Source: an uncultured delta proteobacterium (GTDB lineage Bacteria; Desulfobacterota; SM23-61). Taken from it: a stretch of 64,000 nt of DNA. This document shows, piece after piece, positions 26,895-55,918 of this stretch (within the stretch, counting starts at the first letter, position 1; every line of letters starts with the position of its first letter). Where the stretch lies: NCBI GenBank assembly GCA_963760605.1, contig CAVXFA010000062.1, positions 6,174 to 70,173 of the forward strand. Direction: 5' to 3'. The notes beneath the pieces were generated by a model, which saw only the letters and a list, made by a program, of their open reading frames with translations, was not told the origin of the DNA and made no database searches. A program made the translations under genes and the position numbers.

Positions 26895-27333
26895 GAAACA
26901 TTCCTCCTTTCTGATTTAATGAACGGCACTTCTATAACTGCCCGCCTAGATATCTTTTTTTTGAGCCAAAGCGAGCGTTATTTCCCCTTCTTAAAACTGT
27001 GGCGATTAAAGGGGGCATTGCCTCACTGGGGATGACCTTTTTGCGGCAGCTCAAGCAGAATCCCATGGCCAAAATGAGCAGCCCCCCAGTGAAAATTTGC
27101 CGGATTTCCCTTTCTCTCCTTTTTGCCCGAAATTTAAAAGAAAGATTATATGCTGTTTTATAAGCTGTCAAGGGGAAAATCAAGCTCTGTCTCATTTTTT
27201 AAGGGGGGTGCCATTTCCTGTAATGTGCGCTTGGAGGATCCGTCGAAGTTCCCCCCATTGAGATCCGCATTGTAAGAGTACATAAAAATTTCCCCGTAAT
27301 GCCCATGACCCGTGCGACACCCACGAACCATGA

Positions 27334-27378
27334 AAATCCCCCCTTGCCCCCCTTTAGTAAAGGGGGGTGGGGGGATTT
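27334..27378. repeat. palindromic G6/C6 element, copy A (AAATCCCCCCTTGCCCCCCTTTAGTAAAGGGGGGTGGGGGGATTT)
   Basis: One of three near-identical ~46 bp palindromes; the others are at 37987-38034 and 55183-55228. This one is intergenic, upstream of the flavoprotein gene. Confidence 0.8.
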
Positions 27379-27503
27379 AGGGTATTTTCTAATAAAGTGA
27401 TAAGCAGGCAAACCGCCCCAGAGGAATGCATTTCCCCCTTGGCAGGAATAACCGAGTTTGCTAAGGTAATGGCAATGCCAAACGGGAAAGTTAGGAGGGG
27501 CGT

Positions 27504-32386: not shown

Positions 32387-32492
32387 AATATTTTGAGGGA
32401 TTTTCTGATTGACAGGCAATTGACCTGTAACCTATACTGCTTCCATCACTTCATCTTAGGCTCCTTCCATCATGAAGCACGTTTCTATCATT
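32387..32492 (+). promoter_or_regulatory. promoter-leader cassette, copy 1
   Basis: TTGACA at 32409-32414, TTGACC at 32420-32425, TATACT at 32433-32438, then GCTTCCATCA, a ~23 bp insertion and CTTCCATCATGAAGCACGTTTCTATCATTT. It lies upstream of the Nramp-like gene. Confidence 0.7.
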
Positions 32493-36232: not shown

Positions 36233-36410
36233 CTTCCCTCAGAGGGGAAACCGTCCCCTTCCGGAACGACCTTATGGAAAATTAGGCAAGACTGATCCAG
36301 AAGATCTTCGCGTTCGATCTCCTGCCCTGTCCCGGATGGCCAAAGCAGAGGAGGCTAGTAAGCTTCATCTGAGGACCCTCAGCTTATTAGAAAGACCCTA
36401 GCCCCCACAA

Positions 36411-36490
36411 GATTTTGATCGATTTTTCGATTGACATGCAACTGACTTGTGTCCTATACTCCTTCGGTCATGAAGCATTTGTTTACGGTC
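36411..36490 (+). promoter_or_regulatory. promoter-leader cassette, copy 2
   Basis: TTGACA at 36431-36436, CTGACT at 36442-36447, TATACT at 36455-36460, then CCTTCGGTCATGAAGCATTTG. Upstream of the permease gene at 36866. Confidence 0.65.
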
Positions 36491-38034: not shown

Positions 38035-38124
38035 CATGGTTCGCGGGTGGCCAAACGGCCATGGGTAGTTTTGCCGAAATGCTCGGGGCTGATGGCTCTT
38101 TCTGCTTTTGAGGGGAGAAGTCGC

Positions 38125-38529
38125 ATGATATCGAAAAATATGTGGCTGAGAGCCTCCTTCCTGGCAGTTGCCTTGTTCATGCTCCTTCCGGCGAGTGGTT
38201 CCTCCCAGCCCCAGATCGCGGTATCCGATTTCACGGTCCTGGACTGGTTCAAAGCGGTCAAACTAACCTGGCAGGCCTCAGCCTCGGAAGGGGGAGAGGG
38301 GATCTTCGAGATTTACCGCAGCGACAAGAAGAACGGTCCTTATACGCTGGTACAAGAGGTTCAACTCGGGGATAAGCAATTCATCGATGTCATCACTAAG
38401 ACCTATTCGTTCTTGGACAAGAGGCTGGAGCCCGGCCATAGTTATTACTATAAACTCGCCTTGAGGGGGACGGATCAGACCTTTGGCCCCTTCCGAGGTC
38501 TCGCCTCCGGGGCCCCCCCTGGAACTTGA
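38125..38529 (+). CDS. small exported FN3-like protein, paralog 1
   Basis: Signal peptide MISKNMWLRASFLAVALFMLLPASG. The mature part (FKAVKLTWQA...YRSDKKNGPY...HSYYYKLALRG) aligns along its full length with the ORF at 47920. Confidence 0.6.
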   Translation: MISKNMWLRASFLAVALFMLLPASGSSQPQIAVSDFTVLDWFKAVKLTWQASASEGGEGIFEIYRSDKKNGPYTLVQEVQLGDKQFIDVITKTYSFLDKRLEPGHSYYYKLALRGTDQTFGPFRGLASGAPPGT

Positions 38530-40049: not shown

Positions 40050-40738
40050 TTATGATCATCAAATTAGATCATCTTGAAGTTATATTCGATAGTGGCCGGG
40101 AGACTCTGAAAGTCCTGGACATTCCTCATTGGCAGGTTGAGGAAGGGGATCAGGTAGCTATCTTTGGCCCCTAGGGTTCGGGCAAGTCCACGTTTCTCCA
40201 TGTTCTGGCCGGACTTCTTCCTGTATCGAAAGGGACGCTGAGCGTGTGCGGGCACTCTCTGGAGGGGATATCAGAGGCGGCCAGGGATCGTTTCCGGGCG
40301 AAGTATATTGGATATATATACCAGAATTTCAATTTGTTGCAAGGATATACGGCCCTGGAAAATGTCTTGATAGGGGTGACCTTCTCGGGGCGAAGGGGTG
40401 ATTTTAGGGAGGCCGAAGACCTGTTGGCCGAGGTTGGGCTTTCCCATCGATTGAAATATTATCCCTCCCAGATGTCCTTCGGTGAGCAGCAAAGGGTCGC
40501 TGTGGCCAGGGCCTTAGCGAATCGGCCTAAGCTTCTCTTAGCTGACGAGCCGACCGCTTCGTTACATCCGGTCAATAAGGAGGATGTCCTCAGGCTGTTG
40601 CGGGATATCTGCACAAGATACGGCTGCACCCTTGTGCTGGTCACTCACGAAAAGGAGGTCATCTCCTTGTTCGAAAAGACCATCCCTTTCCTGGAGTTTA
40701 ACCGGGTTTATCCGAACCATGAGGTGAGCCGGCCGTGA
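40050..40738 (+). CDS. MacB/LolD-type ABC transporter ATP-binding protein with an in-frame TAG inside Walker A
   Basis: Own translation from the ATG at 40050: MIIKLDHLEVIFDSGRETLKVLDIPHWQVEEGDQVAIFGP*GSGKSTFLHVLAG... The TAG is at 40131-40133. The paralogous fragment at ~43.85 kb has TCG at this position. The downstream part matches track ORF 40244..40738 (signature LSGGEQQR-like, Walker B LLLADEPT). Confidence 0.7.
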
Positions 40739-40752
40739 GTTTTTGGAGGATT

Positions 40753-41986
40753 ATGCTAAGGAGCTTGAGAGCAGCATCGCTTTTCCAGCGGTTTGGCTGT
40801 GATCAGCATTGCCCTGGGGATCGCCCTATTGGTCGCGGTTTACTCACTGAGGGAACAGTCTCATAATACCTTTACTCAGGTGGGGCTTGGGGTAGATGCG
40901 GTACTGGGCCCCCGAGGGTCACCGCTGCAGATCATCCTGAACTCCCTTTATCATCTGGAAGAAATGCCGGGCAAGATCAAATGGACCTATTTCAAGGAAG
41001 TGGAAAAGGACCCTCTCGTTGTCCAAGCAATTCCTTTTGTAGTAGGCCATTCCTATCGGGGTTTCAGAGTCAATGCGATTGACCGAAGGTTTCTGACGGA
41101 CTTTGAATATCTCCCTGGAAAACGGTTCTCCTTTTCTGAGAAAGAAGGGGGGCAGGGGCGTCCTTTCGGGGCACCTAACGAGGCGGTTGCCGGGTGGGTG
41201 GCCGCCAAGAGCTTGAAGCTAAGGCTTGGAGATGAGTTCAGTCCAGTTTGTGGGGTTCAGGAGGGCGGGCTGGTGCATGAGGAGGACAGGCTTTCCTTTG
41301 TGGGGATTTTAGCTCCGACCGGAACGCCGCATGATCGGGCGATTTATATCCCATTGGAAACCTTCTATGGGCTGGCAGGGCATCCACAGGAGACGAAGAT
41401 CATGGCGCAAGCGGAGGAACACCGGGAGATCAGTGGAGCCTACATCAAGATTAGGCGCATCCGTGGAGGCGCCTTGCATCCCGGCATCCAGGGTCTAAAG
41501 TTCGCGATCAACCAGTCGGACCGTAACCAGCTGGTCATTCCCAATGAAGTGATTCCTCGACTCTTTAACATCGTTGGCTGGGTGGATCGGGTGCTTATTG
41601 CCATAGCGGCTATTCTGACGGCGCTTTCGGCGCTATTCCTGTTCTTTTCTTTGCTCTCTGCTTTGAGGGAGAGAAGGCGGGATTTGGCTTTGTTTCGGGC
41701 GCTGGGGGCGACTCGGAAGACGGTTATGGGTCTGGTCATATTTGAGGCCCTGATCATCAGCCTTTTGGGCGGGATCTTGGGTCTGCTACTGGGTCACGGG
41801 TTGATCAGCATTGGCGCCCATTTTATTAAGGTAGAGACAGGGGTTAATTTCTCGGGGAGTTACCTGAGTCTGGCTGATTGGCTGGCGGTTCCGGGCACAG
41901 TCCTTTTGGGTTTAATGGCTGGTCTATTGCCTGGGATTCAGGCTTATCGCCTGGGAGTTCTGAAGAGCCTTTCACCCATATCTTAA
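40753..41986 (+). CDS. FtsX-like ABC transporter permease (MacB/LolC family) with a frameshift at its 5' end
   Basis: MLRSLRAASLFQRF (frame of the ATG at 40753) fits the N-terminal cytoplasmic segment. TM1 onward (LAVISIALGIALLVA...) is in frame +1 from ~40793. The C-terminal FtsX domain is intact. Confidence 0.65.
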
Positions 41987-41990
41987 CCGA

Positions 41991-42072
41991 AACGTTGCAT
42001 GAATATTCGCAAGGAGAAGATTTGTCATTCCCGCGAAGCTTGTCCCCGCGAAAGCGGGGAGCGGGAATCCAG
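41991..42072. repeat. IR plus hairpin element, copy Y
   Basis: AACGTTGCATGAATATTCGCAAGG..TGTCATTCCCGCGAAGCTTGTCCCCGCGAAAGCGGGGAGCGGGAATCCAG, with nested hairpins. It parallels 34338-34398. Confidence 0.6.
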
Positions 42073-42126
42073 TAAGGATCCAAAGCCCTACTAACAGATG
42101 GCCCAGAAAGGATTTAGGAAGAAGGT

Positions 42127-42702
42127 ATGAAAGTCAAAGCTTATTTCGTTGCGATTCTCGGTTTAGTTTTTTTCTTTCTGAGCCTGGGTATTTGGAATAT
42201 CTCTGAGGCGCAAAAGAAACCCGACAAGAAAGAAGGGAAAGGGGATGGGGTGCGGGTGATTGAAGAGACAGGTCCATTGGGACATAAGACCATCGGGATC
42301 GATGAAAGCTCAATCGTCCAGGATCCCAGCAAAGAGCTTTTACTTACCTATTCCGCCCTCATGACCTGGCAATATGATACAAAAAGCAATCCGCCCCCTC
42401 CTGGGGGGATAAAAAAATTAGACGGCCGGAAGGTCCGCATTACCGGGTTCATGTTTCCCCTGCAAGAAGGCACATCCATTCAGAACTTCTGCCTCTTGCG
42501 CACCACCCAGACCTGTTGCTATGGACCGCGCCCACAATACAACCAGTATATCTTCGTGGAGATGGCCAAGCCTACGGCTTTTCACCGTCTTGATCCTGTC
42601 ACCTGCGTGGGAAAGCTGAAAGTGGAACCCACTCCCGAGGAGGGGTTTATCTACCGCATGGAGGGTGAAATATGCGAATCCGTTTCCGCAAAAGAGAAGT
42701 AA
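42127..42702 (+). CDS. DUF3299-domain exported protein, accessory component of the MacB-type ABC module
   Basis: Signal peptide plus the conserved LLRTTQTCCYGPRP region. Confidence 0.55.
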   Translation: MKVKAYFVAILGLVFFFLSLGIWNISEAQKKPDKKEGKGDGVRVIEETGPLGHKTIGIDESSIVQDPSKELLLTYSALMTWQYDTKSNPPPPGGIKKLDGRKVRITGFMFPLQEGTSIQNFCLLRTTQTCCYGPRPQYNQYIFVEMAKPTAFHRLDPVTCVGKLKVEPTPEEGFIYRMEGEICESVSAKEK

Positions 42703-43033
42703 TAGCCATTGCGACAGGGACAATTATTGGGCTGCTTTTTCCGTAATCTGAAATCCGCAATCATAAATGGGCTGCCCCGGGCAGGGGAGATCCAGCCTTT
42801 GGCGGGGCAAAATCGGCCACGAATACCCTTTTCCTAAACTGCAGGCTCCATCCCAAAATAGGATAGCCGGGACAGAAAAATATTCGAATTAACCTCCTTG
42901 GCCCCCTCATCTTTTGAAAACCGCCATTTTGATAGGCTACTGTTGCAAAAATTACGTGGTAGTTTAAGAGGCGACAAGACTAAACTAAAAAGCTAGAGTG
43001 CGACTTCGGATTTAAGGCTCCCGGATCCTTTCC

Positions 43034-43945
43034 TCAATCTTTGAAATAACCTGCTGAGCTTTGGTTCTCAGTACAAAATAATCCAGCTCGTTGTCCTGAT
43101 TCTTTGATCCAGAGATCTCCTCTTCTTTGCCTTGCCATTCGACGAGCTTCAATCGGAGGAAGGGCAAAGGTCTGGCTATTTCCCCCCATTGCCAATACAT
43201 CCAATGTTACCATCATCAGCTGATGATCCTCACTTCTGCTGATAATTCCCGATAATCGCTCGGTCAATCGGGGATCACCGAGGGCATTCAGGATATAAGG
43301 GACTTCCATTTTCCTCTGGAGATTGATCTGGTCATACCTTTCCCAAATCCGATCGGCTATGCGAGTTGACCCGAGTTTGGCCAAGCTATGCGCGACGAAC
43401 AAACGGGTCTGAAATTCAGCTGAGCGAACCCCAAATGTGCTAAAGGTAACCCTCTTGACCAATTCGGACAAAATTTCCTCCAGCAAGGGAACCGAGTCGG
43501 TGTCCTTTAATTCGACAACATATCCTGCAGCCCTGATTTGGAGTGGGGGATTATCATTAGACTTCAAGCTTTCCCGGATGGTCGGCAGGGCGGCTCTTCC
43601 CTCTTTTTCATAAAGGATCCTTAGAGCATACAATGCTCGATTTTGATTTTCTTTTGCTAGCTGACCCGCCGCGACGCAAGCAGCACACCCCTCTGCGTTA
43701 CTTCCCCAGGAAAGCGAGAAGAAAAGGACCATAAAAAGAAGCCAGAGAAAGATGTTCTTCTCCAGGGAGTGCTTGCACACGGTGAGCTTTCCCTTCGATA
43801 TGGGAAGAAGGCCGGCTAGGATATGAAGAAAAGTGGACTTGCCCGAACCCGAGGGGCCAAAGAGGACTACCTGATCGCCTTCTTCTGCCTGCCAACGCGC
43901 AATGTCAAGACCCTTCAGAGTCTCCCGGCCACTATCGAATACCAC
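43034..43945 (-). CDS. chimeric ORF: a duplicated N-terminal fragment of the ABC ATPase (~60 aa) fused to an exported helical-repeat protein
   Basis: The N-terminus VFDSGRETLKGLDIARWQAEEGDQVVLFGPSGSGKSTFLHILAGLLPISKGKLTVCKHSLE is ~85% identical at DNA level to 40077-40250. It then runs into a signal-peptide-like stretch NIFLWLLFMVLFFSLSWGSNAEG and ~230 aa of helical repeats. GTG start; no upstream homology beyond the cassette. Confidence 0.5.
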   Translation of the reverse strand: MVFDSGRETLKGLDIARWQAEEGDQVVLFGPSGSGKSTFLHILAGLLPISKGKLTVCKHSLEKNIFLWLLFMVLFFSLSWGSNAEGCAACVAAGQLAKENQNRALYALRILYEKEGRAALPTIRESLKSNDNPPLQIRAAGYVVELKDTDSVPLLEEILSELVKRVTFSTFGVRSAEFQTRLFVAHSLAKLGSTRIADRIWERYDQINLQRKMEVPYILNALGDPRLTERLSGIISRSEDHQLMMVTLDVLAMGGNSQTFALPPIEARRMARQRRGDLWIKESGQRAGLFCTENQSSAGYFKD

Positions 43946-43971
43946 TTCCTGCTTCTTTGAATGGAAATACT

Positions 43972-44050
43972 TAGAAAATCTTTCGTGATTGACATGAAAT
44001 TGAGTTGTGTTCTATACTGCTTGCATAATGAAGCAGGTTCTTATCATTCT
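43972..44050 (+). promoter_or_regulatory. promoter-leader cassette, copy 3
   Basis: TTGACA at 43989-43994, TTGAGT at 44000-44005, TATACT at 44013-44018, then GCTTGCATAATGAAGCAGGTTCTTATCATTC. Upstream of the heme-PD40 gene. It abuts the truncated ATPase fragment on the other strand. Confidence 0.65.
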
Positions 44051-44117
44051 CCTATCTATTGAGACTGCGGTCGCTTAGCATTTTCGCCCAAACCACCTTT
44101 TTCCCTGGAGGTCTGTC

Positions 44118-46181
44118 ATGAAAAGTCACCACCATATCTTTGCAGTTGCCTTTTTTCTGGGCTTCCTGGCGCTTGTCCCGATGGAATCTGGAGCCTACTT
44201 AGATCAAATCAAGGGCAAGAAGGGACCTACGGGGGACGTGGTCCTCCAGGTGGGAGCCATGCCCGTCCCCCTTCCCTCGCGGCGTCAAATCATCGATGCA
44301 GATAAGGGGGCTTTCTGCCTGCAATGCCATCGGATGCCGTATCCCACGGCCCCGCAAAAGCCAGCAAAGCCGGGCGAAAAGGCATTGTCTTCGGTTCAAG
44401 TTACCCCTCCGGGAGGATGGCGGCTCCTGACACCCCTCACCGGCTTCAACGCGATAGCCGGCGGATGGAGCCCGGATGGAAAGCACATCGTCTATTCGAT
44501 CAATCTCTTCGAGAAGGATTGGGATATCTGGGTCATGGATGCGGATGGCAAGAACCGGGCTCCCCTTATTTCGGGCTCGGCGATCAAAATGGCGCCGGAT
44601 TGGAGCCCGGACGGCAAATTCATCGTCTTTCAATCGAATCGCTCGGGAAACTTCGATATATGGATAATGGAAATAGCCACCAAGAAGCTGACCCAACTGA
44701 CCAACGAGCCAAGTGAAGAGACTATGCCCAGATGGTCTCCCGATGGGAAGAAGATCGTCTTCCAGTCTAATCGGTCTGGCAACGAGGATATTTGGACGGT
44801 GGATATCGCAACCGGCCAATGGACCCAACTAACCAACAGCCCGGCCAAGGATGAGAATCCTGTCTTCAGTCCCAACGGGCAGCAGATCGCCTTCGTCTCA
44901 GACCGAAACGGAAAGAAAGATATTTTTGTCATGAACGCTGATGGAAGTGATCAGAGAGCTCTCACCTCAGAACCCGGGGATAATATCGCTCCTCATTGGA
45001 GCCCGGATGGAAAGAAGATCATCTTTTCCCGCAAGGGTGCAGATAACAACCTGCATCTCTGGGTGATGAATGCCGATGGATCGGAGCAGATCCGCCTGAC
45101 GACCCATCCCACCTCGCAGATCGGTCCCTACTGGAGCCCGGACGGAAAGTGGGTCATCTTCACTTCCAACATCCGCGGCAACTGGGATGTCCTCCTGATG
45201 CAGGTGGATGCCTCCATGGTCGATCCATCTCGCAGCCCGCTCAAGCGCTTGACCGATAGCGAGGCCCGGGAGGTGGGCGCCATCTGGAGCCCGGATGGGA
45301 AGAAGATCGCCTACAACTCGGATGCGAATGGACATTGGAGCATTTGGACGATGGGTCCCGATGGTAAGAACAAGCGCCAACTGACCGGAGACGATGAGGA
45401 CGCCGGCTGGCCTTCCTGGAGCCCGGATGGGAAGAAGATCCTTTACTGGGGCTGCCGGGATGGCAACCAGGATGTCTGGGTGATGGATGCGGATGGATCG
45501 AACAAGAGGCGGCTGACCGATCATCCGGCATTGGATGGGGACGCGCAGTGGAGCCCGGACGGGAAGAGGATCGTCTTCGTCTCCGAGCGCACCGGCAAGG
45601 GTGATATCTATGTCATGGATGCCGATGGGTCAAACCAGAAGCGCCTGACCTTCACCGATGCCCTCGATTGGACGCCTTATTGGAGCCCGGATGGGAAGAA
45701 GATCGCCTATGTTTCCAATCAGACCGGGAAATGGGAGATCTGGGCATTGGACGTGGAGACCCTGGAGGGCAAGCACCTCACGCCTGATTCCGGTGGCAAC
45801 TTTGTGCCGCGGTGGAGGCCGCCGGATGGGAGTCAGATATGCTATGTGGGATGGCGAGGGGGTGAGTACACCATCAAGGGCAGTTTTGATGTGGTGGTCA
45901 TGAACGTGGACGGCAGCGGAAAGAGGGAACTGGCCCCGTCCCCGTTCGACGAGCGATCATCGCGTTGGAGCCCGGATGGTAGCAGGATCGTGTTTTGGTC
46001 CTGGCGAACCGGGAGCCCGCAGATCTATGTGATGAATGCGGACGGAAGTGGCTTAAGACAGCTCACTGACAATCTGGCCTACAATGTCTTCCCCTCCTGG
46101 AGCCCGGATGGAAAGAGGATTGCCTTCGAGTCTGACCGCATGGGCAACTTCGACATCTGGGTGATGGAAGTGCCGGAATAG
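44118..46181 (+). CDS. periplasmic TolB-like protein with 13 PD40 beta-propeller repeats and an N-terminal CxxCH heme-binding motif
   Basis: Signal peptide, then GAFCLQCHRM (CxxCH), then 13 repeats of the ..WSPDGK.I.F.. type. Confidence 0.7.
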   Translation: MKSHHHIFAVAFFLGFLALVPMESGAYLDQIKGKKGPTGDVVLQVGAMPVPLPSRRQIIDADKGAFCLQCHRMPYPTAPQKPAKPGEKALSSVQVTPPGGWRLLTPLTGFNAIAGGWSPDGKHIVYSINLFEKDWDIWVMDADGKNRAPLISGSAIKMAPDWSPDGKFIVFQSNRSGNFDIWIMEIATKKLTQLTNEPSEETMPRWSPDGKKIVFQSNRSGNEDIWTVDIATGQWTQLTNSPAKDENPVFSPNGQQIAFVSDRNGKKDIFVMNADGSDQRALTSEPGDNIAPHWSPDGKKIIFSRKGADNNLHLWVMNADGSEQIRLTTHPTSQIGPYWSPDGKWVIFTSNIRGNWDVLLMQVDASMVDPSRSPLKRLTDSEAREVGAIWSPDGKKIAYNSDANGHWSIWTMGPDGKNKRQLTGDDEDAGWPSWSPDGKKILYWGCRDGNQDVWVMDADGSNKRRLTDHPALDGDAQWSPDGKRIVFVSERTGKGDIYVMDADGSNQKRLTFTDALDWTPYWSPDGKKIAYVSNQTGKWEIWALDVETLEGKHLTPDSGGNFVPRWRPPDGSQICYVGWRGGEYTIKGSFDVVVMNVDGSGKRELAPSPFDERSSRWSPDGSRIVFWSWRTGSPQIYVMNADGSGLRQLTDNLAYNVFPSWSPDGKRIAFESDRMGNFDIWVMEVPE

Positions 46182-46220: not shown

Positions 46221-46340
46221 AATATTTGAGCGATTTTTTAAATTGACATGCAATTGACTTGTGTCCTATACTGCCTCCGTCGTCACTTTTTTTTCATTCC
46301 CTATGCCGCTTCCATCATGAAGCACGTTCCTATCATTTAC
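46221..46340 (+). promoter_or_regulatory. promoter-leader cassette, copy 4
   Basis: TTGACA at 46243-46248, TTGACT at 46254-46259, TATACT at 46267-46272, a 34 bp insertion, then CTTCCATCATGAAGCACGTTCCTATCATTT. A perfect hairpin, CTTCTCCCCCA gtt TGGGGGAGAAG, follows at 46366-46390. Confidence 0.7.
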
Positions 46341-46609: not shown

Positions 46610-47772
46610 ATGAAGAAGTGGCACATTGTTGCTGTTTGTTTGTTGGGACTCTTGTTGCTGGCATGGTCTCGAGCCGCTGTGGCCGGACCTAAGGTGGCCA
46701 TTGTCCAAGGGAATGAAAAGATATTGAAAGGTTCAGTGATCGCCCCCGAGCGATGCTGGGCTATCTGCCCAAGCATCCGGAAGGTGGACGCGAGGACCTT
46801 GGCTGGACCTTAGAGTATACGCCAGAGAGCATTCAGGAAGTTGAGAGGATGGTCCGTAAGGCCGTTGATTTGGCGGGTGGATGGCCGGTTAAAAGCGGGG
46901 ACACGGTATTTATCAAGTTCAACGCCAATAACGATCAATGGTATCTGTTATCCACTGGTCACGGGAATGCGGAGGACTTCGCTGCCACGAACACGGATGG
47001 CCGGATCGCTAGAGCAGTCGCGCTCTTGTGCAAGGAGTCGGGGGCCAGGAGGATCATTATCGGCGAAGCCCCTGGACTCGCCAACGCTATTCCATCCATG
47101 AGAGTGTGGGGAGCCGAAATGGCGGTTAAGGAGGCGGGAGCTGAGCTCGTTGACCTTGACAATGTGCCTTACAGATGGGTCAAAGCCCCGCATGCCCTGG
47201 CAGCTGCGGAGTACGCTATACCTGCAGTAGTGCTGGATGCGGATGTAGTGATCAGCGTGGCAAACCTGAAGACCCATGGCTTTGCGGGCACTACAGGGGT
47301 CTTAAAGAACATCGGTATCGGCGTTCCTCCCAACAAGGTCTATGGTGCTCCTAAGACAGGATTGCGTCACGATGTGCTGCGAAGACCCAAAGTGATGTAT
47401 GCGATATCGTGAAGGCTAAGTATCAACATCTTAGGCGCCATCTACGGTGGGGAAGGAGCTGGGCCTACGATGTGCAAGGGTATTTACCAGGGCATAATTC
47501 TTGCCGGTAAAGATCCAGTGGCCATAGATTACGTAGGGAGTGCCTGCATGGGTGAGAATCCAGAACGTTTCGGCTACCTGCGAATAGGCCAGCGAGATCG
47601 GTCTGGGCACATACAAAGACATCCAGGTGGTTGGCAAGAGTATCGGGGAAGTCATGAAGCAATATGCGCCACTTCCAGGCCATGGACCCGGCGCTTTTGG
47701 AGAAGTTTGGGGCTGGCCGTAAGATTCGCCTTGGATGAGGGGGAGGACGTAGGTTCTCCCTCCCTCATGTAA
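46610..47772 (+). pseudogene. exported DUF362-domain protein, paralog 2, broken by at least two frameshifts
   Basis: Signal peptide ORF 46610..46813. The core AVDLAGGWPVKSGDTVFIKFN is in ORF 46753..47412. The C-terminal part is in ORF 47470..47772 (AGKDPVAIDYVGSACMG). It aligns with the 38713..39840 protein across all three frames. Confidence 0.6.
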
Positions 47773-47919: not shown

Positions 47920-48336
47920 ATGGATTTGATGTCAAATTATCTGAAGACCCCACTCTTGGTGCTGGCTCTGGTGGTTGCTTTAGTGGCCTTCCTTCCCGGG
48001 GTGGGATTTTCTCAAGAGAAAGTCTCGATATACGATTTCTACGTTTTCAATTGGCTGAAAGCCGTCAAGCTGAATTGGAAGGCTGCCGCTCCCGAGGGCG
48101 CAGAGGGAACCCTCCAGGTTTACCGGAGCGATAAGGAAAACGGTCCCTATTCGCTTGTGCAAGAGATAAGACTGGGCGACCGGGGATTCATCGATGTCAT
48201 CACAGGGACCTATGTCTTCTTCGACAGGAAGGTGGAGGCCGACCACAGCTATTACTATAAGCTGGGGCTGCGGGGGTCCAGTCAAAGTTTGGGTCCCTTA
48301 AGAGGACTCGCCCGCAGCGGCCCTCCTGGGACTTGA
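47920..48336 (+). CDS. small exported FN3-like protein, paralog 2
   Basis: About 60% identical to the 38125..38529 product, including the conserved C-terminal tail GP(F/L)RGLA..PPGT. Confidence 0.6.
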   Translation: MDLMSNYLKTPLLVLALVVALVAFLPGVGFSQEKVSIYDFYVFNWLKAVKLNWKAAAPEGAEGTLQVYRSDKENGPYSLVQEIRLGDRGFIDVITGTYVFFDRKVEADHSYYYKLGLRGSSQSLGPLRGLARSGPPGT

Positions 48337-48353
48337 AAGACCGTCACATTATG

Positions 48354-48436
48354 AATATTTTGAGCGGTTTTTTGATTGACATGCAATTGACTTGTGCCCT
48401 ATACTGCTTCCATCATGAAGGAAATTTCTATCCTTA
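48354..48436 (+). promoter_or_regulatory. promoter-leader cassette, copy 5 (most compact copy)
   Basis: AATATTTTGAGCGGTTTTTTGA, TTGACA at 48376-48381, TTGACT at 48388-48393, TATACT at 48400-48405, then GCTTCCATCATGAAGGAAATTTCTATCC. It sits 20 nt ahead of the cupin gene start. Confidence 0.7.
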
Positions 48437-54707: not shown

Positions 54708-55118
54708 TTGTCGCCAATGAAAAATCGAGGATTTACGTTGATCGAAATCGTGGTAGCCATGGCCATCTTAGGGGTGGGGTTGATTGCGATCATCGAACTC
54801 TTTTCCGGGGGACTCCGTCTGGGAAGGGCCTCCGAAGAATATACGAGAGCAGTTGGTTTTGCCCGGATGAAAATGGAAGAATTCGCCTTAAAAGACCATG
54901 TGGAAGAAGGGAATGAGGTAGGGGATTTTGATAAAGACTTTCGTTGGCAGGTGGGGGTGAAAAAGCTGGACATTCTTCCCGCAGAAAAATTTACAGAGTT
55001 TCGACCCCCTGTCGAGCTTTATCAGATTAAAGTGAATATCATCTGGAAGTCCGGCTCCCGGGAAAGGTCTGCTGGAATTGAAACCTATAAGACGGTCAAA
55101 GTGGAGAACCAGGGATGA
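54708..55118 (+). CDS. gspI: minor pseudopilin GspI-like
   Basis: RGFTLIEIVVAMAILGVG. 136 aa. Confidence 0.65.
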   Translation: MSPMKNRGFTLIEIVVAMAILGVGLIAIIELFSGGLRLGRASEEYTRAVGFARMKMEEFALKDHVEEGNEVGDFDKDFRWQVGVKKLDILPAEKFTEFRPPVELYQIKVNIIWKSGSRERSAGIETYKTVKVENQG

Positions 55119-55918
55119 ACCGGGAGTTGACCCCGTTGTTGAATGAATTTTCCATGACGGATAGGTCACCCGCGAGCTATGAAAATCCCCCCCTGCCCCC
55201 CTTTGGTAAAGGGGGGTTGGGGGGATTTGGGTTTACCCTGATCGAAGTGATGGTCGCCTTTACGGTCCTTGGTTTTATTCTGCTCATCATTTTTGGAGTT
55301 TTCCGCCTGGGCCTTTCCGCCTGGGAGAAAGGGGAGTCTATTAAAGAGGAGTATCAGAAGGTGCGGATTATTTCCCAGTTGATCTCCCGGCAGATCAAGT
55401 CCATCGTTCCTTATAAAATCAAGACCCAAAAAGCAGAAGGGGATTATCTGGCCTTTGAAGGGAAAGCCCATTCTTTAAAATTCGTCTCTGCCCTCTCCCT
55501 CAAGGCAAGACGGCCCGAAGGTTTTGTCTATGCCGTGTACGAGTTTAAAGAGGGGGGCAGAGAGGGAGGGCGCTTCGTTCTTTACGAGGAGAGGGCCCTC
55601 AACAGGGATTTTATGGAAGAGAATCCCAAGGAGGAGTTGGGGGTTTCTCTATTAGAAGAAATTTCCGAGATGCGCTTTGAATATTATCAGGAGGAAGACC
55701 CAGAAAAGGAACAAGCCGGCGGATGGCTTACGGAATGGAATGCCAAGGAAAAAAGGGAATTACCCAAAGCACTCAGGATGACCCTCATCCATAAGAAGGG
55801 AAATGGGGAGAAGGAAGAATCCCCGATCCTCCTTTTGGCTTCCCTTCCTTCCAACCGATTTGAAGAAGTAAGAATAGGCCCCAGCCGGAGGGTTATTCCT
55901 CAGCGGCCTCCGAGATAA
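55115..55918 (+). CDS. gspJ: minor pseudopilin GspJ-like; the real start is probably at 55154 or later
   Basis: GFTLIEVMVAFTVLGF prepilin core. The annotated N-terminus reads through palindromic element copy C. Confidence 0.6.
   Translation: MNRELTPLLNEFSMTDRSPASYENPPLPPFGKGGLGGFGFTLIEVMVAFTVLGFILLIIFGVFRLGLSAWEKGESIKEEYQKVRIISQLISRQIKSIVPYKIKTQKAEGDYLAFEGKAHSLKFVSALSLKARRPEGFVYAVYEFKEGGREGGRFVLYEERALNRDFMEENPKEELGVSLLEEISEMRFEYYQEEDPEKEQAGGWLTEWNAKEKRELPKALRMTLIHKKGNGEKEESPILLLASLPSNRFEEVRIGPSRRVIPQRPPR
55183..55228. repeat. palindromic G6/C6 element, copy C
   Basis: AAAATCCCCCCCTGCCCCCCCTTTGGTAAAGGGGGGTTGGGGGGATTT. It lies in the gspI-gspJ junction, inside the apparent leader-peptide coding region of gspJ (it translates in frame to NPPLPPFGKGGLGGFG). 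Confidence 0.8.

Follow-up and report, generated by a model that had tools for sequence, protein, structure and literature searches.

An exported PD40 double-propeller protein with a conserved N-terminal CxxCH module, a candidate haem-c site, from an uncultured delta proteobacterium

The DNA analysed here is a stretch of 64,000 nt, referred to throughout as the window, from a contig of an uncultured delta proteobacterium (GenBank accession number CAVXFA010000062.1). It contains a complete open reading frame (ORF) for a protein of 687 amino acids (aa), in which a signal peptide is followed by a short segment with a CxxCH motif and then by a long series of PD40-type repeats (Table 1). The original prediction for this gene had described a signal peptide, one canonical CxxCH site, 13 repeats that would be enough for two propellers, and transcription from the third copy of a repeated promoter cassette, and each of these features was recovered. 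A Sec/SPase-I signal was found at the N-terminus, the CxxCH is a single site at residues 67-71 in the context GAFCLQCHRMPYP quoted earlier, 13 repeats were counted and were modelled as 6 + 7 blades by AlphaFold2 (AF2), and the third of five 62-nt cassette copies lies upstream with its own promoter.

Table 1. Coordinates of the 687-aa gene, its parts and related features (window positions unless a homolog locus is named)
Feature	Coordinates	Strand	Residues and remarks
Complete ORF	44118..46181	+	687 aa, ATG 44118 to TAG 46179-46181; exported CxxCH + PD40 double-propeller protein
Shine-Dalgarno sequence GGAGG	44107..44111	+	7 nt 5' of the ATG; direct sequence reading; kept in L013 and L014
Sec signal peptide	44118..44195	+	residues 1-26; cleavage after A in ESGA, before Y, inferred by reading
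Conserved haem-motif module	44256..44357	+	residues 47-80, MPVPLPSRRQIIDADKGAFCLQCHRMPYPTAPQK; family alignments
CxxCH, C67-L-Q-C70-H71	44316..44330	+	presumed covalent haem-c site, His71 proximal
Pro-rich tether	44331..44417	+	residues 72-100 (RMPYPTAPQKPAKPGEKALSSVQVTPPGG), into first propeller strand WRLLT; predicted local distance difference test score (pLDDT) mostly <50
Propeller 1, six PD40 blades	44418..45203	+	residues ~101-362; repeats, AF2; absent from sister family
Inter-propeller linker	45204..45239	+	residues 363-374 (VDASMVDPSRSP); strongly conserved; contains VDASMVDP
Propeller 2, seven blades	45240..46178	+	residues 375-687; repeats, AF2; common to sister family
Promoter cassette, copy 3 of 5	43967..44028	+	62 nt; direct repeats, alignment, pattern search, promoter scan
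Hairpin CTGCTTgcataatgAAGCAG then T-rich run GTTCTTATCATT	44017..44046	+	at or just after predicted transcription start; terminator-like match
Cassette copies, ~62 nt each	32387-32448, 36409-36470, 43967-44028, 46221-46282, 48354-48415		
Tandem-paralog loci	L001 7807-12099; L003 2-5077; L006 10001-14285; L007 7227-12080; L018 4726-9130; L019-L021		

The N-terminus, MKSHHHIFAVAFFLGFLALVPMESGA followed by Y after the cleavage point, is of the Sec/SPase-I type and has no lipobox Cys. The n, h and c regions of the signal are kept in the alignment of the homologs, a helix spans residues 5-19 within it in the AF2 model, and every family member or relative that was inspected begins with a signal or lipoprotein N-terminus. 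The sequence SRRQII in the module was considered as a possible Tat signal and ruled out, as it lies after a cleavable hydrophobic signal and has no h-region behind it. On these sequence features the product is an exported, periplasmic or extracytoplasmic protein, and it belongs to an uncharacterised family.

A search with the whole protein returned thousands of PD40 proteins, only two of which (P0001 and P0002) extend over the N-terminus, both with C-L-x-C-H. When the first 113 residues were used as the query and genome and metagenome collections were then scanned with an alignment of the module, 53 loci were found, in metagenome-assembled genomes (MAGs) labelled Methylomirabilota/NC10, Desulfobacteraceae, 'Pseudomonadota' or unclassified bacteria. 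Identity to the window protein is 61-83% among the 16 full-length members, and the closest relative (L013) shares 94% identity over the N-terminus. A look-up of the exact protein sequence returned no record; besides L013, the closest relative is the L005 Methylomirabilota MAG, whose ABC genes show 83-85% aa identity. We propose a CxxCH-module PD40 family, defined by a signal peptide, the module, 6 + 7 blades and a length of ~685-700 aa, and the window protein has all of these.

The module of ~35 residues has the consensus P.P.PSRRQIIDADKG..CL.CHRMPYPTAPQ. Fifteen positions (P49, P53, S54, R55, R56, D60, K63, G64, C67, L68, C70, H71, P74, Y75 and P76) are invariant in the 16 full-length members, and mean conservation in the module is 0.81-0.85, equal to that of the best blades, compared with 0.49 in the preceding linker. 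To avoid circularity, copies of the module were located by the PSRRQII anchor alone, independently of the CxxCH, and the CxxCH was present in 57 of the 59 family copies found in this way, which are distributed over 54 loci. Both exceptions are in genes with frameshifts: that of L002/P0121, with CGKCL, is divided between two overlapping ORFs, and in L053 the frame shifts right after CLQC. The xx positions vary freely (LQ, LL, LV, LK, LA, LM, LT, LR and FQ were seen), as expected for a genuine haem motif. The window protein contains only 4 Cys and 11 His, and the chance expectation for a CxxCH computed from this composition is ~4e-4; no second CxxCH was found in any ORF of at least 100 aa in the six frames of the window. 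The original prediction had allowed that the motif would be fortuitous if homologs universally lacked it. The opposite was seen, in this family and in the 21 sister-family members described below, and the sequence comparisons indicate that the CxxCH of the 687-aa protein is not fortuitous.

A profile search of the full library detected more distant relatives with a CxxCH before a PD40 propeller, namely P0146 (CASCH), P0200 (CANCH), P0251 (CYACH), P0263 (CWDCH) and P0269 (CYSCH), in all of which Pfam sees PD40 only. With P0269 as the query, a sister family of ~37 proteins with a single propeller was recovered, one of which (P0272) is labelled Anaerolineales. Like the window protein, these have a homologous module, P-[ST]-R-x-x-I-[IV]...C-x-x-C-H-R, which in their case directly precedes a seven-blade propeller, and each of the 21 members in which the N-terminal TLPTR.I.P anchor is intact has CxxCH-R. 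Both families keep Arg55 and the Ile-Ile pair. The sister family, which is likewise uncharacterised, differs in having one propeller and, ahead of the module, an additional domain of ~90-400 aa, and some members have lipoprotein-type signals. In an hhalign comparison its propeller matches the window protein only in propeller 2 (residues 370-687, 32% identity, E 7.8e-59), idiosyncratic blades included. The conserved unit therefore appears to be the CxxCH module plus a seven-blade propeller, which is probably the ancestral core, and propeller 1, which lies between the two in the window protein, is most simply explained as a later insertion.

Five of the longer sister-family members (P0281, P0286, P0287, P0289 and P0296) have a second CxxCH, C[IVM]GCH, in the extra N-terminal domain ~240 residues upstream of the first, and the longer members share the motif GW.LQGFIED..G.LRPQ..EET..C.GCHGG.G.TTDS in this domain. 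Three of the members with two CxxCH were scanned, and in one of them, P0286, the domain gave a sub-threshold match to Cytochrome_P460 (E 6e-5, 23.9 bits with a cut-off of 27). The extra domain otherwise had no PDB or NCBIfam match. Within the window protein's own family, two or three tandem paralogs, each with its own signal peptide and CxxCH module, were found in several MAGs or metagenome contigs. Short variants were also present (P0137 at L009 9977-10552, P0141 and P0149) in which the module, or the PSRRQ part of it, is joined directly to the last one or two blades. They resemble the products of repeat-mediated deletion within the gene or of collapse during assembly.

The 13 repeats of the (W/F)SPDG type begin at residues 117, 162, 206, 250, 294 and 339 in the first propeller and at 390, 434, 478, 522, 566, 617 and 661 in the second. 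They are also visible in the DNA as a family of direct repeats, and Pfam recognises PD40 with an E value of 1.6e-125, with 12 stretches scored separately. AF2, supplied with a 66-sequence alignment, gave the two propellers with a mean pLDDT of 81 and a predicted TM-score of 0.70, and the single-sequence model had a pLDDT of 65 overall and below 50 at the N-terminus. In the linker between the propellers, S366, M367 and P370 are invariant in the 16 full-length members and a short helix is modelled at residues 365-368. One blade of propeller 2 is long and atypical (WRPPDG...GWRGGEYTIKGSFD, residues 566-595); the AF2 model of it is poor, and pLDDT is below 50 at residues 539-585. Foldseek searches of the PDB with the model matched generic, including tandem, propellers only (2YMU, tricorn beta6-beta7 and TolB) and no haem protein.

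The statement in the original prediction that the protein could not be assigned to a characterised family was borne out, as searches of Pfam, NCBIfam, the PDB and the literature gave no entry that covers the module. PDB sequence searches with the whole protein, the module alone and the sister N-terminal domain gave nothing significant for the module. The best match of the module alone was a hexahaem fragment of Geobacter GSU1996 (3OUQ), which at E 3.7 is not significant; the two share the pattern P.R...D..KG..C..CH found in haem-binding segments. In the library searched, we found no paper on a protein combining PD40 and CxxCH, nor on one combining a TolB-like part, haem and a propeller, and papers on DUF362 were not informative.

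The protein had also been called TolB-like. This holds for the blade type, and TolB chains are the best PDB sequence matches (E ~1e-29 to 1e-32); like the window protein, TolB is periplasmic with PD40-type blades, six of them as in propeller 1. It does not hold for the remainder of the protein or for its context. TolB has an N-terminal alpha/beta domain, one six-bladed propeller rather than 6 + 7, and no CxxCH module; TolB_N (PF04052) was not listed in the Pfam scan of the window protein, and the ORF map of the window contains no tol or pal genes and no tolQRA-tolB-pal-cpoB cluster. The neighbours are instead an ABC/FtsX/DUF3299 set, a HEAT-repeat protein, DUF362 proteins, a cupin and MFS transporters. 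The score of 626 bits against the NCBIfam TolB equivalog model TIGR02800 (cut-off 343) is the sum of five partial matches at model positions ~171-399, and TolB identity was rejected. Summation over repeats in this way could lead annotation pipelines to mislabel the window protein, and many other multi-propeller PD40 proteins, as TolB.

The tandem arrangement of 6 + 7 PD40-like blades resembles the beta6-beta7 propellers of tricorn protease (PDB 1K32, Foldseek E 1.6e-20), and some homologs carry precomputed Tricorn_N and Tricorn_2nd Pfam labels. Tricorn differs in being cytoplasmic, in having PDZ and protease domains and in having no haem motif. A tricorn or S9 peptidase was rejected, as the ORF stops after blade 13 and neither Pfam nor NCBIfam detects a peptidase domain. 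Cytochrome cd1 nitrite reductase and NirN are, like the window protein, periplasmic with a haem-c attachment motif N-terminal to a beta-propeller in one polypeptide. Where the window protein has the ~35-aa module and 6 + 7 PD40 blades, they have an eight-blade propeller that binds haem d1 and a full class-I cytochrome c domain of ~100 aa, in which ligation is His/Met or His/His. NirN (6RTD) was a weak PDB match over the propeller part only (E 2.5e-4), and membership of this group was rejected on the blade number and on the Cytochrom_D1 (PF02239) score of 11.9 bits (E 0.078, cut-off 25.5). The alpha subunit of hydrazine synthase (NF052339) also combines a PD40-like propeller with a c-type haem motif in one periplasm-type polypeptide, and its haem is catalytic, not merely an electron carrier. 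Its haem domains follow the propeller, it forms a three-subunit complex whose partners are not present at the window gene, and the window protein reached only 72.6 bits of a cut-off of 800, over the blades alone, so this assignment was also rejected.

The gene is one of five units in the window that are each preceded by a copy of the promoter cassette. Every copy has the form TTGACA-18-TATACT and a further TTGAC that follows the first by 11 nt. In copy 3 the -35 sequence TTGACA is at 43989-43994, the 18-nt spacer includes the second TTGAG/TTGAC and the -10 sequence TATACT is at 44013-44018. A search for the cassette pattern gave five sites where none was expected, and a promoter scan gave 11 of 12 consensus matches to the sigma-70 type. 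The next cassette starts 40 nt past the stop codon of the 687-aa ORF, so that the gene looks monocistronic. All five copies, and the region upstream of the L013 ortholog, contain a hairpin, TGCTTC-catcat-GAAGCA followed by GTTTCTATCATT, which could be an operator or attenuator; an Rfam search of the whole window found no family, and the hairpin is not a known riboswitch or leader. A conserved ATGAAG in the cassette could start a tiny leaderless ORF (44028-44078 in copy 3, MKQVLIILLSIETAVA). No full match to the cassette was found in the 53 homolog loci and a partial copy only upstream of the L013 ortholog, indicating that the cassette is a feature of the window lineage and not of the family.

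The other four cassette units encode an Nramp-family transporter with an MFS transporter; an ArsP_1 permease with a small secreted protein and DUF362; a second, frameshifted DUF362 with a paralogous small secreted protein; and a secreted cupin. The nearest family for the ArsP_1 permease is that of SO_0444 Cu/Zn efflux, with a match of 139 bits that stays under the cut-off of 300. Two ORFs (46753-47412 and 47470-47772) seem to make up the second DUF362 gene, which has a frameshift or is a pseudogene, and a separate ORF (46610-46813) may hold its N-terminal signal region. No family was matched by the two small secreted proteins (38047-38529 and 47920-48336), each of which comes after a cassette-driven unit and which may form part of the same functional module; a homolog is found at L009 14869-15303. 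Elsewhere in the window, an 81-nt sequence with a G-run/C-run hairpin (CCCCCCTTGCCCCCCTTT..AAAGGGGGGTGGGGGG) is directly repeated with 81% identity (27303-27383 and 55152-55232), the second copy inside an ORF (55115-55918) beside type II secretion pseudopilin genes. The repeat could represent a small mobile element or one resembling repetitive extragenic palindromic (REP) sequences.

Immediately upstream of the gene is a set encoding an ABC ATPase, an FtsX permease, DUF3299 and a HEAT-repeat protein, with 63-85% aa identity to an intact, collinear operon beside the L005 ortholog in a Methylomirabilota MAG. The composition of ATPase, permease and DUF3299 is that of ZrgBCE, and it adjoins the gene both in the window and in L005. 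DUF3299 corresponds to ZrgE, and ZrgBCE is Zur-regulated in Vibrio (PMC9817125). In the window this operon (40244-43945) is rearranged. The Walker-A N-terminus of the ATPase, on the minus strand at 43945-~43760, continues in frame into the HEAT-repeat gene (to 43034), and the plus strand, at 40244-42702, encodes the remainder of the ATPase together with the FtsX permease and DUF3299. L013 lacks the ABC block of ~4 kb between DUF362 and the PD40 gene. The arrangement in the window may reflect a genuine inversion or insertion, or an error of assembly.

Neighbouring genes were counted in those 31 homolog loci where 1.5 kb or more of sequence lies upstream, near-identical contigs being counted separately. 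An ArsP/SO_0444-like permease was nearby in 9 of the 31, usually adjacent and divergent, and a small secreted protein with no assigned function was likewise nearby in nine. DUF362 and a Peripla_BP_6 protein of ~740 aa were each found in eight. In L009 a short variant has an Nramp-like gene as its neighbour, and upstream are ORFs resembling DtxR, FeoB and CDF (identified by sequence reading only), and in another lineage tandem paralogs are beside amidases and porin/PstS genes.

On balance, with somewhat better than even confidence, we read the window protein from its sequence as a covalent haem-c propeller protein of a new family. In this reading, the protein would be exported by the Sec system and its signal peptide removed, after which the cytochrome-c maturation system of the host would link a single haem c to Cys67 and Cys70, and His71 would be its proximal ligand. 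The haem edge and propionates would presumably be wrapped by invariant Arg, Ile, Asp, Lys and Gly residues of the module, and the Pro-rich tether would hold the module near a propeller face of the 6 + 7-blade PD40 double propeller. The module may fold only around the cofactor, which would explain the low AF2 confidence in this region. An 808-aa ORF with eight CxxCH, a multihaem cytochrome c by its sequence, was observed in an NC10 MAG (L007 1115-3541), ~4-6 kb upstream of tandem family genes, which suggests that this lineage makes c-type cytochromes.

The identity of a distal ligand was considered. His71 is the only His or Met that the two families both conserve in the hhalign and family alignments, and H330, invariant in eight sequences, is no longer so in 16. 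This suggests that the haem is most likely five-coordinate, or that its distal ligand is family-specific or exchangeable. Met367 in the inter-propeller linker is the best, if speculative, candidate in the family of the window protein. A five-coordinate haem, or one with an exchangeable ligand, would be a ligand-binding or catalytic haem over the propeller face and the protein would not be a simple electron-shuttle cytochrome.

Several observations weigh against a covalent haem. The protein has the CxxCH in an exported polypeptide that is typical of c-type cytochromes, but a recognisable cytochrome c fold or domain was found neither in Pfam or NCBIfam nor with the PDB or AF2. No second axial ligand is conserved within the module in the alignments, and AF2, run without a cofactor, gives residues 22-96 a pLDDT of ~40 and the module no predicted fold or docking. 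One homolog (the L002/P0121 copy) has CxxCL, though in a broken gene. Cytochrome-maturation genes are absent from the window, as is any further CxxCH protein, so that the haem-c capacity of the host is deduced from related lineages only. The genomic context is heterogeneous, with neither the permease nor DUF362 at many loci, and for most orthologs no cassette was found in the upstream sequence. The metal-related part of the context also fits a Cys2His metal site as well as it fits a haem site.

Such a site, binding Cu, Zn, Fe or Ni on a flexible arm without any haem, is the strongest alternative, and we consider it an unlikely one. The protein would then be a periplasmic chaperone, buffer or sensor working with the neighbouring transporters. 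Besides the lack of a conserved distal haem ligand, this would suit the Nramp transporter, the SO_0444 Cu/Zn efflux-like permease, the ZrgBCE-like ABC genes with DUF3299 and the DtxR- and FeoB-like ORFs of L009, and a module predicted to be disordered would resemble many metallochaperone arms. It is set against the presence of only three conserved potential ligands, with no fourth Cys, His or Met in the module, and against the exact C-x-x-C-H spacing with free xx positions in two families that are ~30% identical, which is the signature that haem-c maturation systems recognise. Exposed periplasmic CxxC pairs are normally oxidised to disulfides. The second CxxCH in some sister-family members, one with the sub-threshold P460-like domain, also argues against it.

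Less probable again is that the module is an element without a cofactor, such as a disulfide-stapled CxxC docking peptide or 'plug' for a partner or for the propeller of the same protein, with a structural His, in a periplasmic scaffold or receptor like other PD40 double propellers. By sequence, the closest propeller relatives are wHTH-TM-PD40 sensor-type and 'Tol biopolymer transport system component' proteins with no cofactor, and this reading is consistent with the generic structural matches and the absence of a modelled fold. A disulfide staple does not explain the His after the second Cys in 57 of 59 and 21 of 21 sequences, and the Arg55 and Ile-Ile pair kept in both families are typical of haem-binding segments, although this is a resemblance only. 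That the protein is an ordinary TolB or TolB paralog, or part of an S9 or tricorn propeller, with a fortuitous CxxCH is highly improbable: the TIGR02800 score, the TolB matches in the PDB and the Foldseek matches to tricorn protease and S9 peptidases are outweighed by the partial, summed nature of that score, the missing TolB_N and tol-pal genes, the absence of a peptidase, PDZ or other catalytic domain after blade 13, and conservation counts that refute a fortuitous motif.

For the preferred haem-c protein, any specific statement of function is doubtful. The shared cassette, the ZrgBCE-like neighbour and the recurrence of the permease, DUF362 and periplasmic binding protein suggest, with low confidence, a role in an envelope metal or redox-stress response; the protein might, for example, sense or redox-convert in the periplasm a metal or small molecule that the transporters handle, and what it acts on or senses could be the redox state of a metal ion or a small oxidant. 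The P460-like extra domain in one sister-family member and the presence of the family in NC10 raise the idea, tentative and rather unlikely to be right as it stands, of a new class of periplasmic haem-c enzyme with the CxxCH module and seven-blade propeller as its core, in which a five-coordinate, substrate-accessible haem over a PD40 propeller would carry out redox chemistry on a metal ion or small N- or O-species together with the COG0701/SO_0444-type permease and DUF362.

Proteins that combine c-haem with a beta-propeller include unusual redox enzymes, among them cd1 nitrite reductase, hydrazine synthase and the quinohaemoprotein dehydrogenases. The combination is thus already known, and the new part is a minimal CxxCH module of ~35 residues before PD40 propellers, for which there is no curated family, structure or literature entry. 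Two related families carry this module, with members in Methylomirabilota/NC10, Desulfobacteraceae and Anaerolineales MAGs. Little is understood of the genes that recur beside it (SO_0444/ArsP-type permease, DUF362 and ZrgBCE-like ABC genes), and a redox partner for these would shed light on how uncultured anaerobes keep metal homeostasis in the envelope. If the haem is real, the module would represent a new cytochrome architecture, would correct a likely TolB mis-annotation, and would offer a way into the roles of the numerous 'Tol biopolymer transport system component' proteins that environmental genomes encode.

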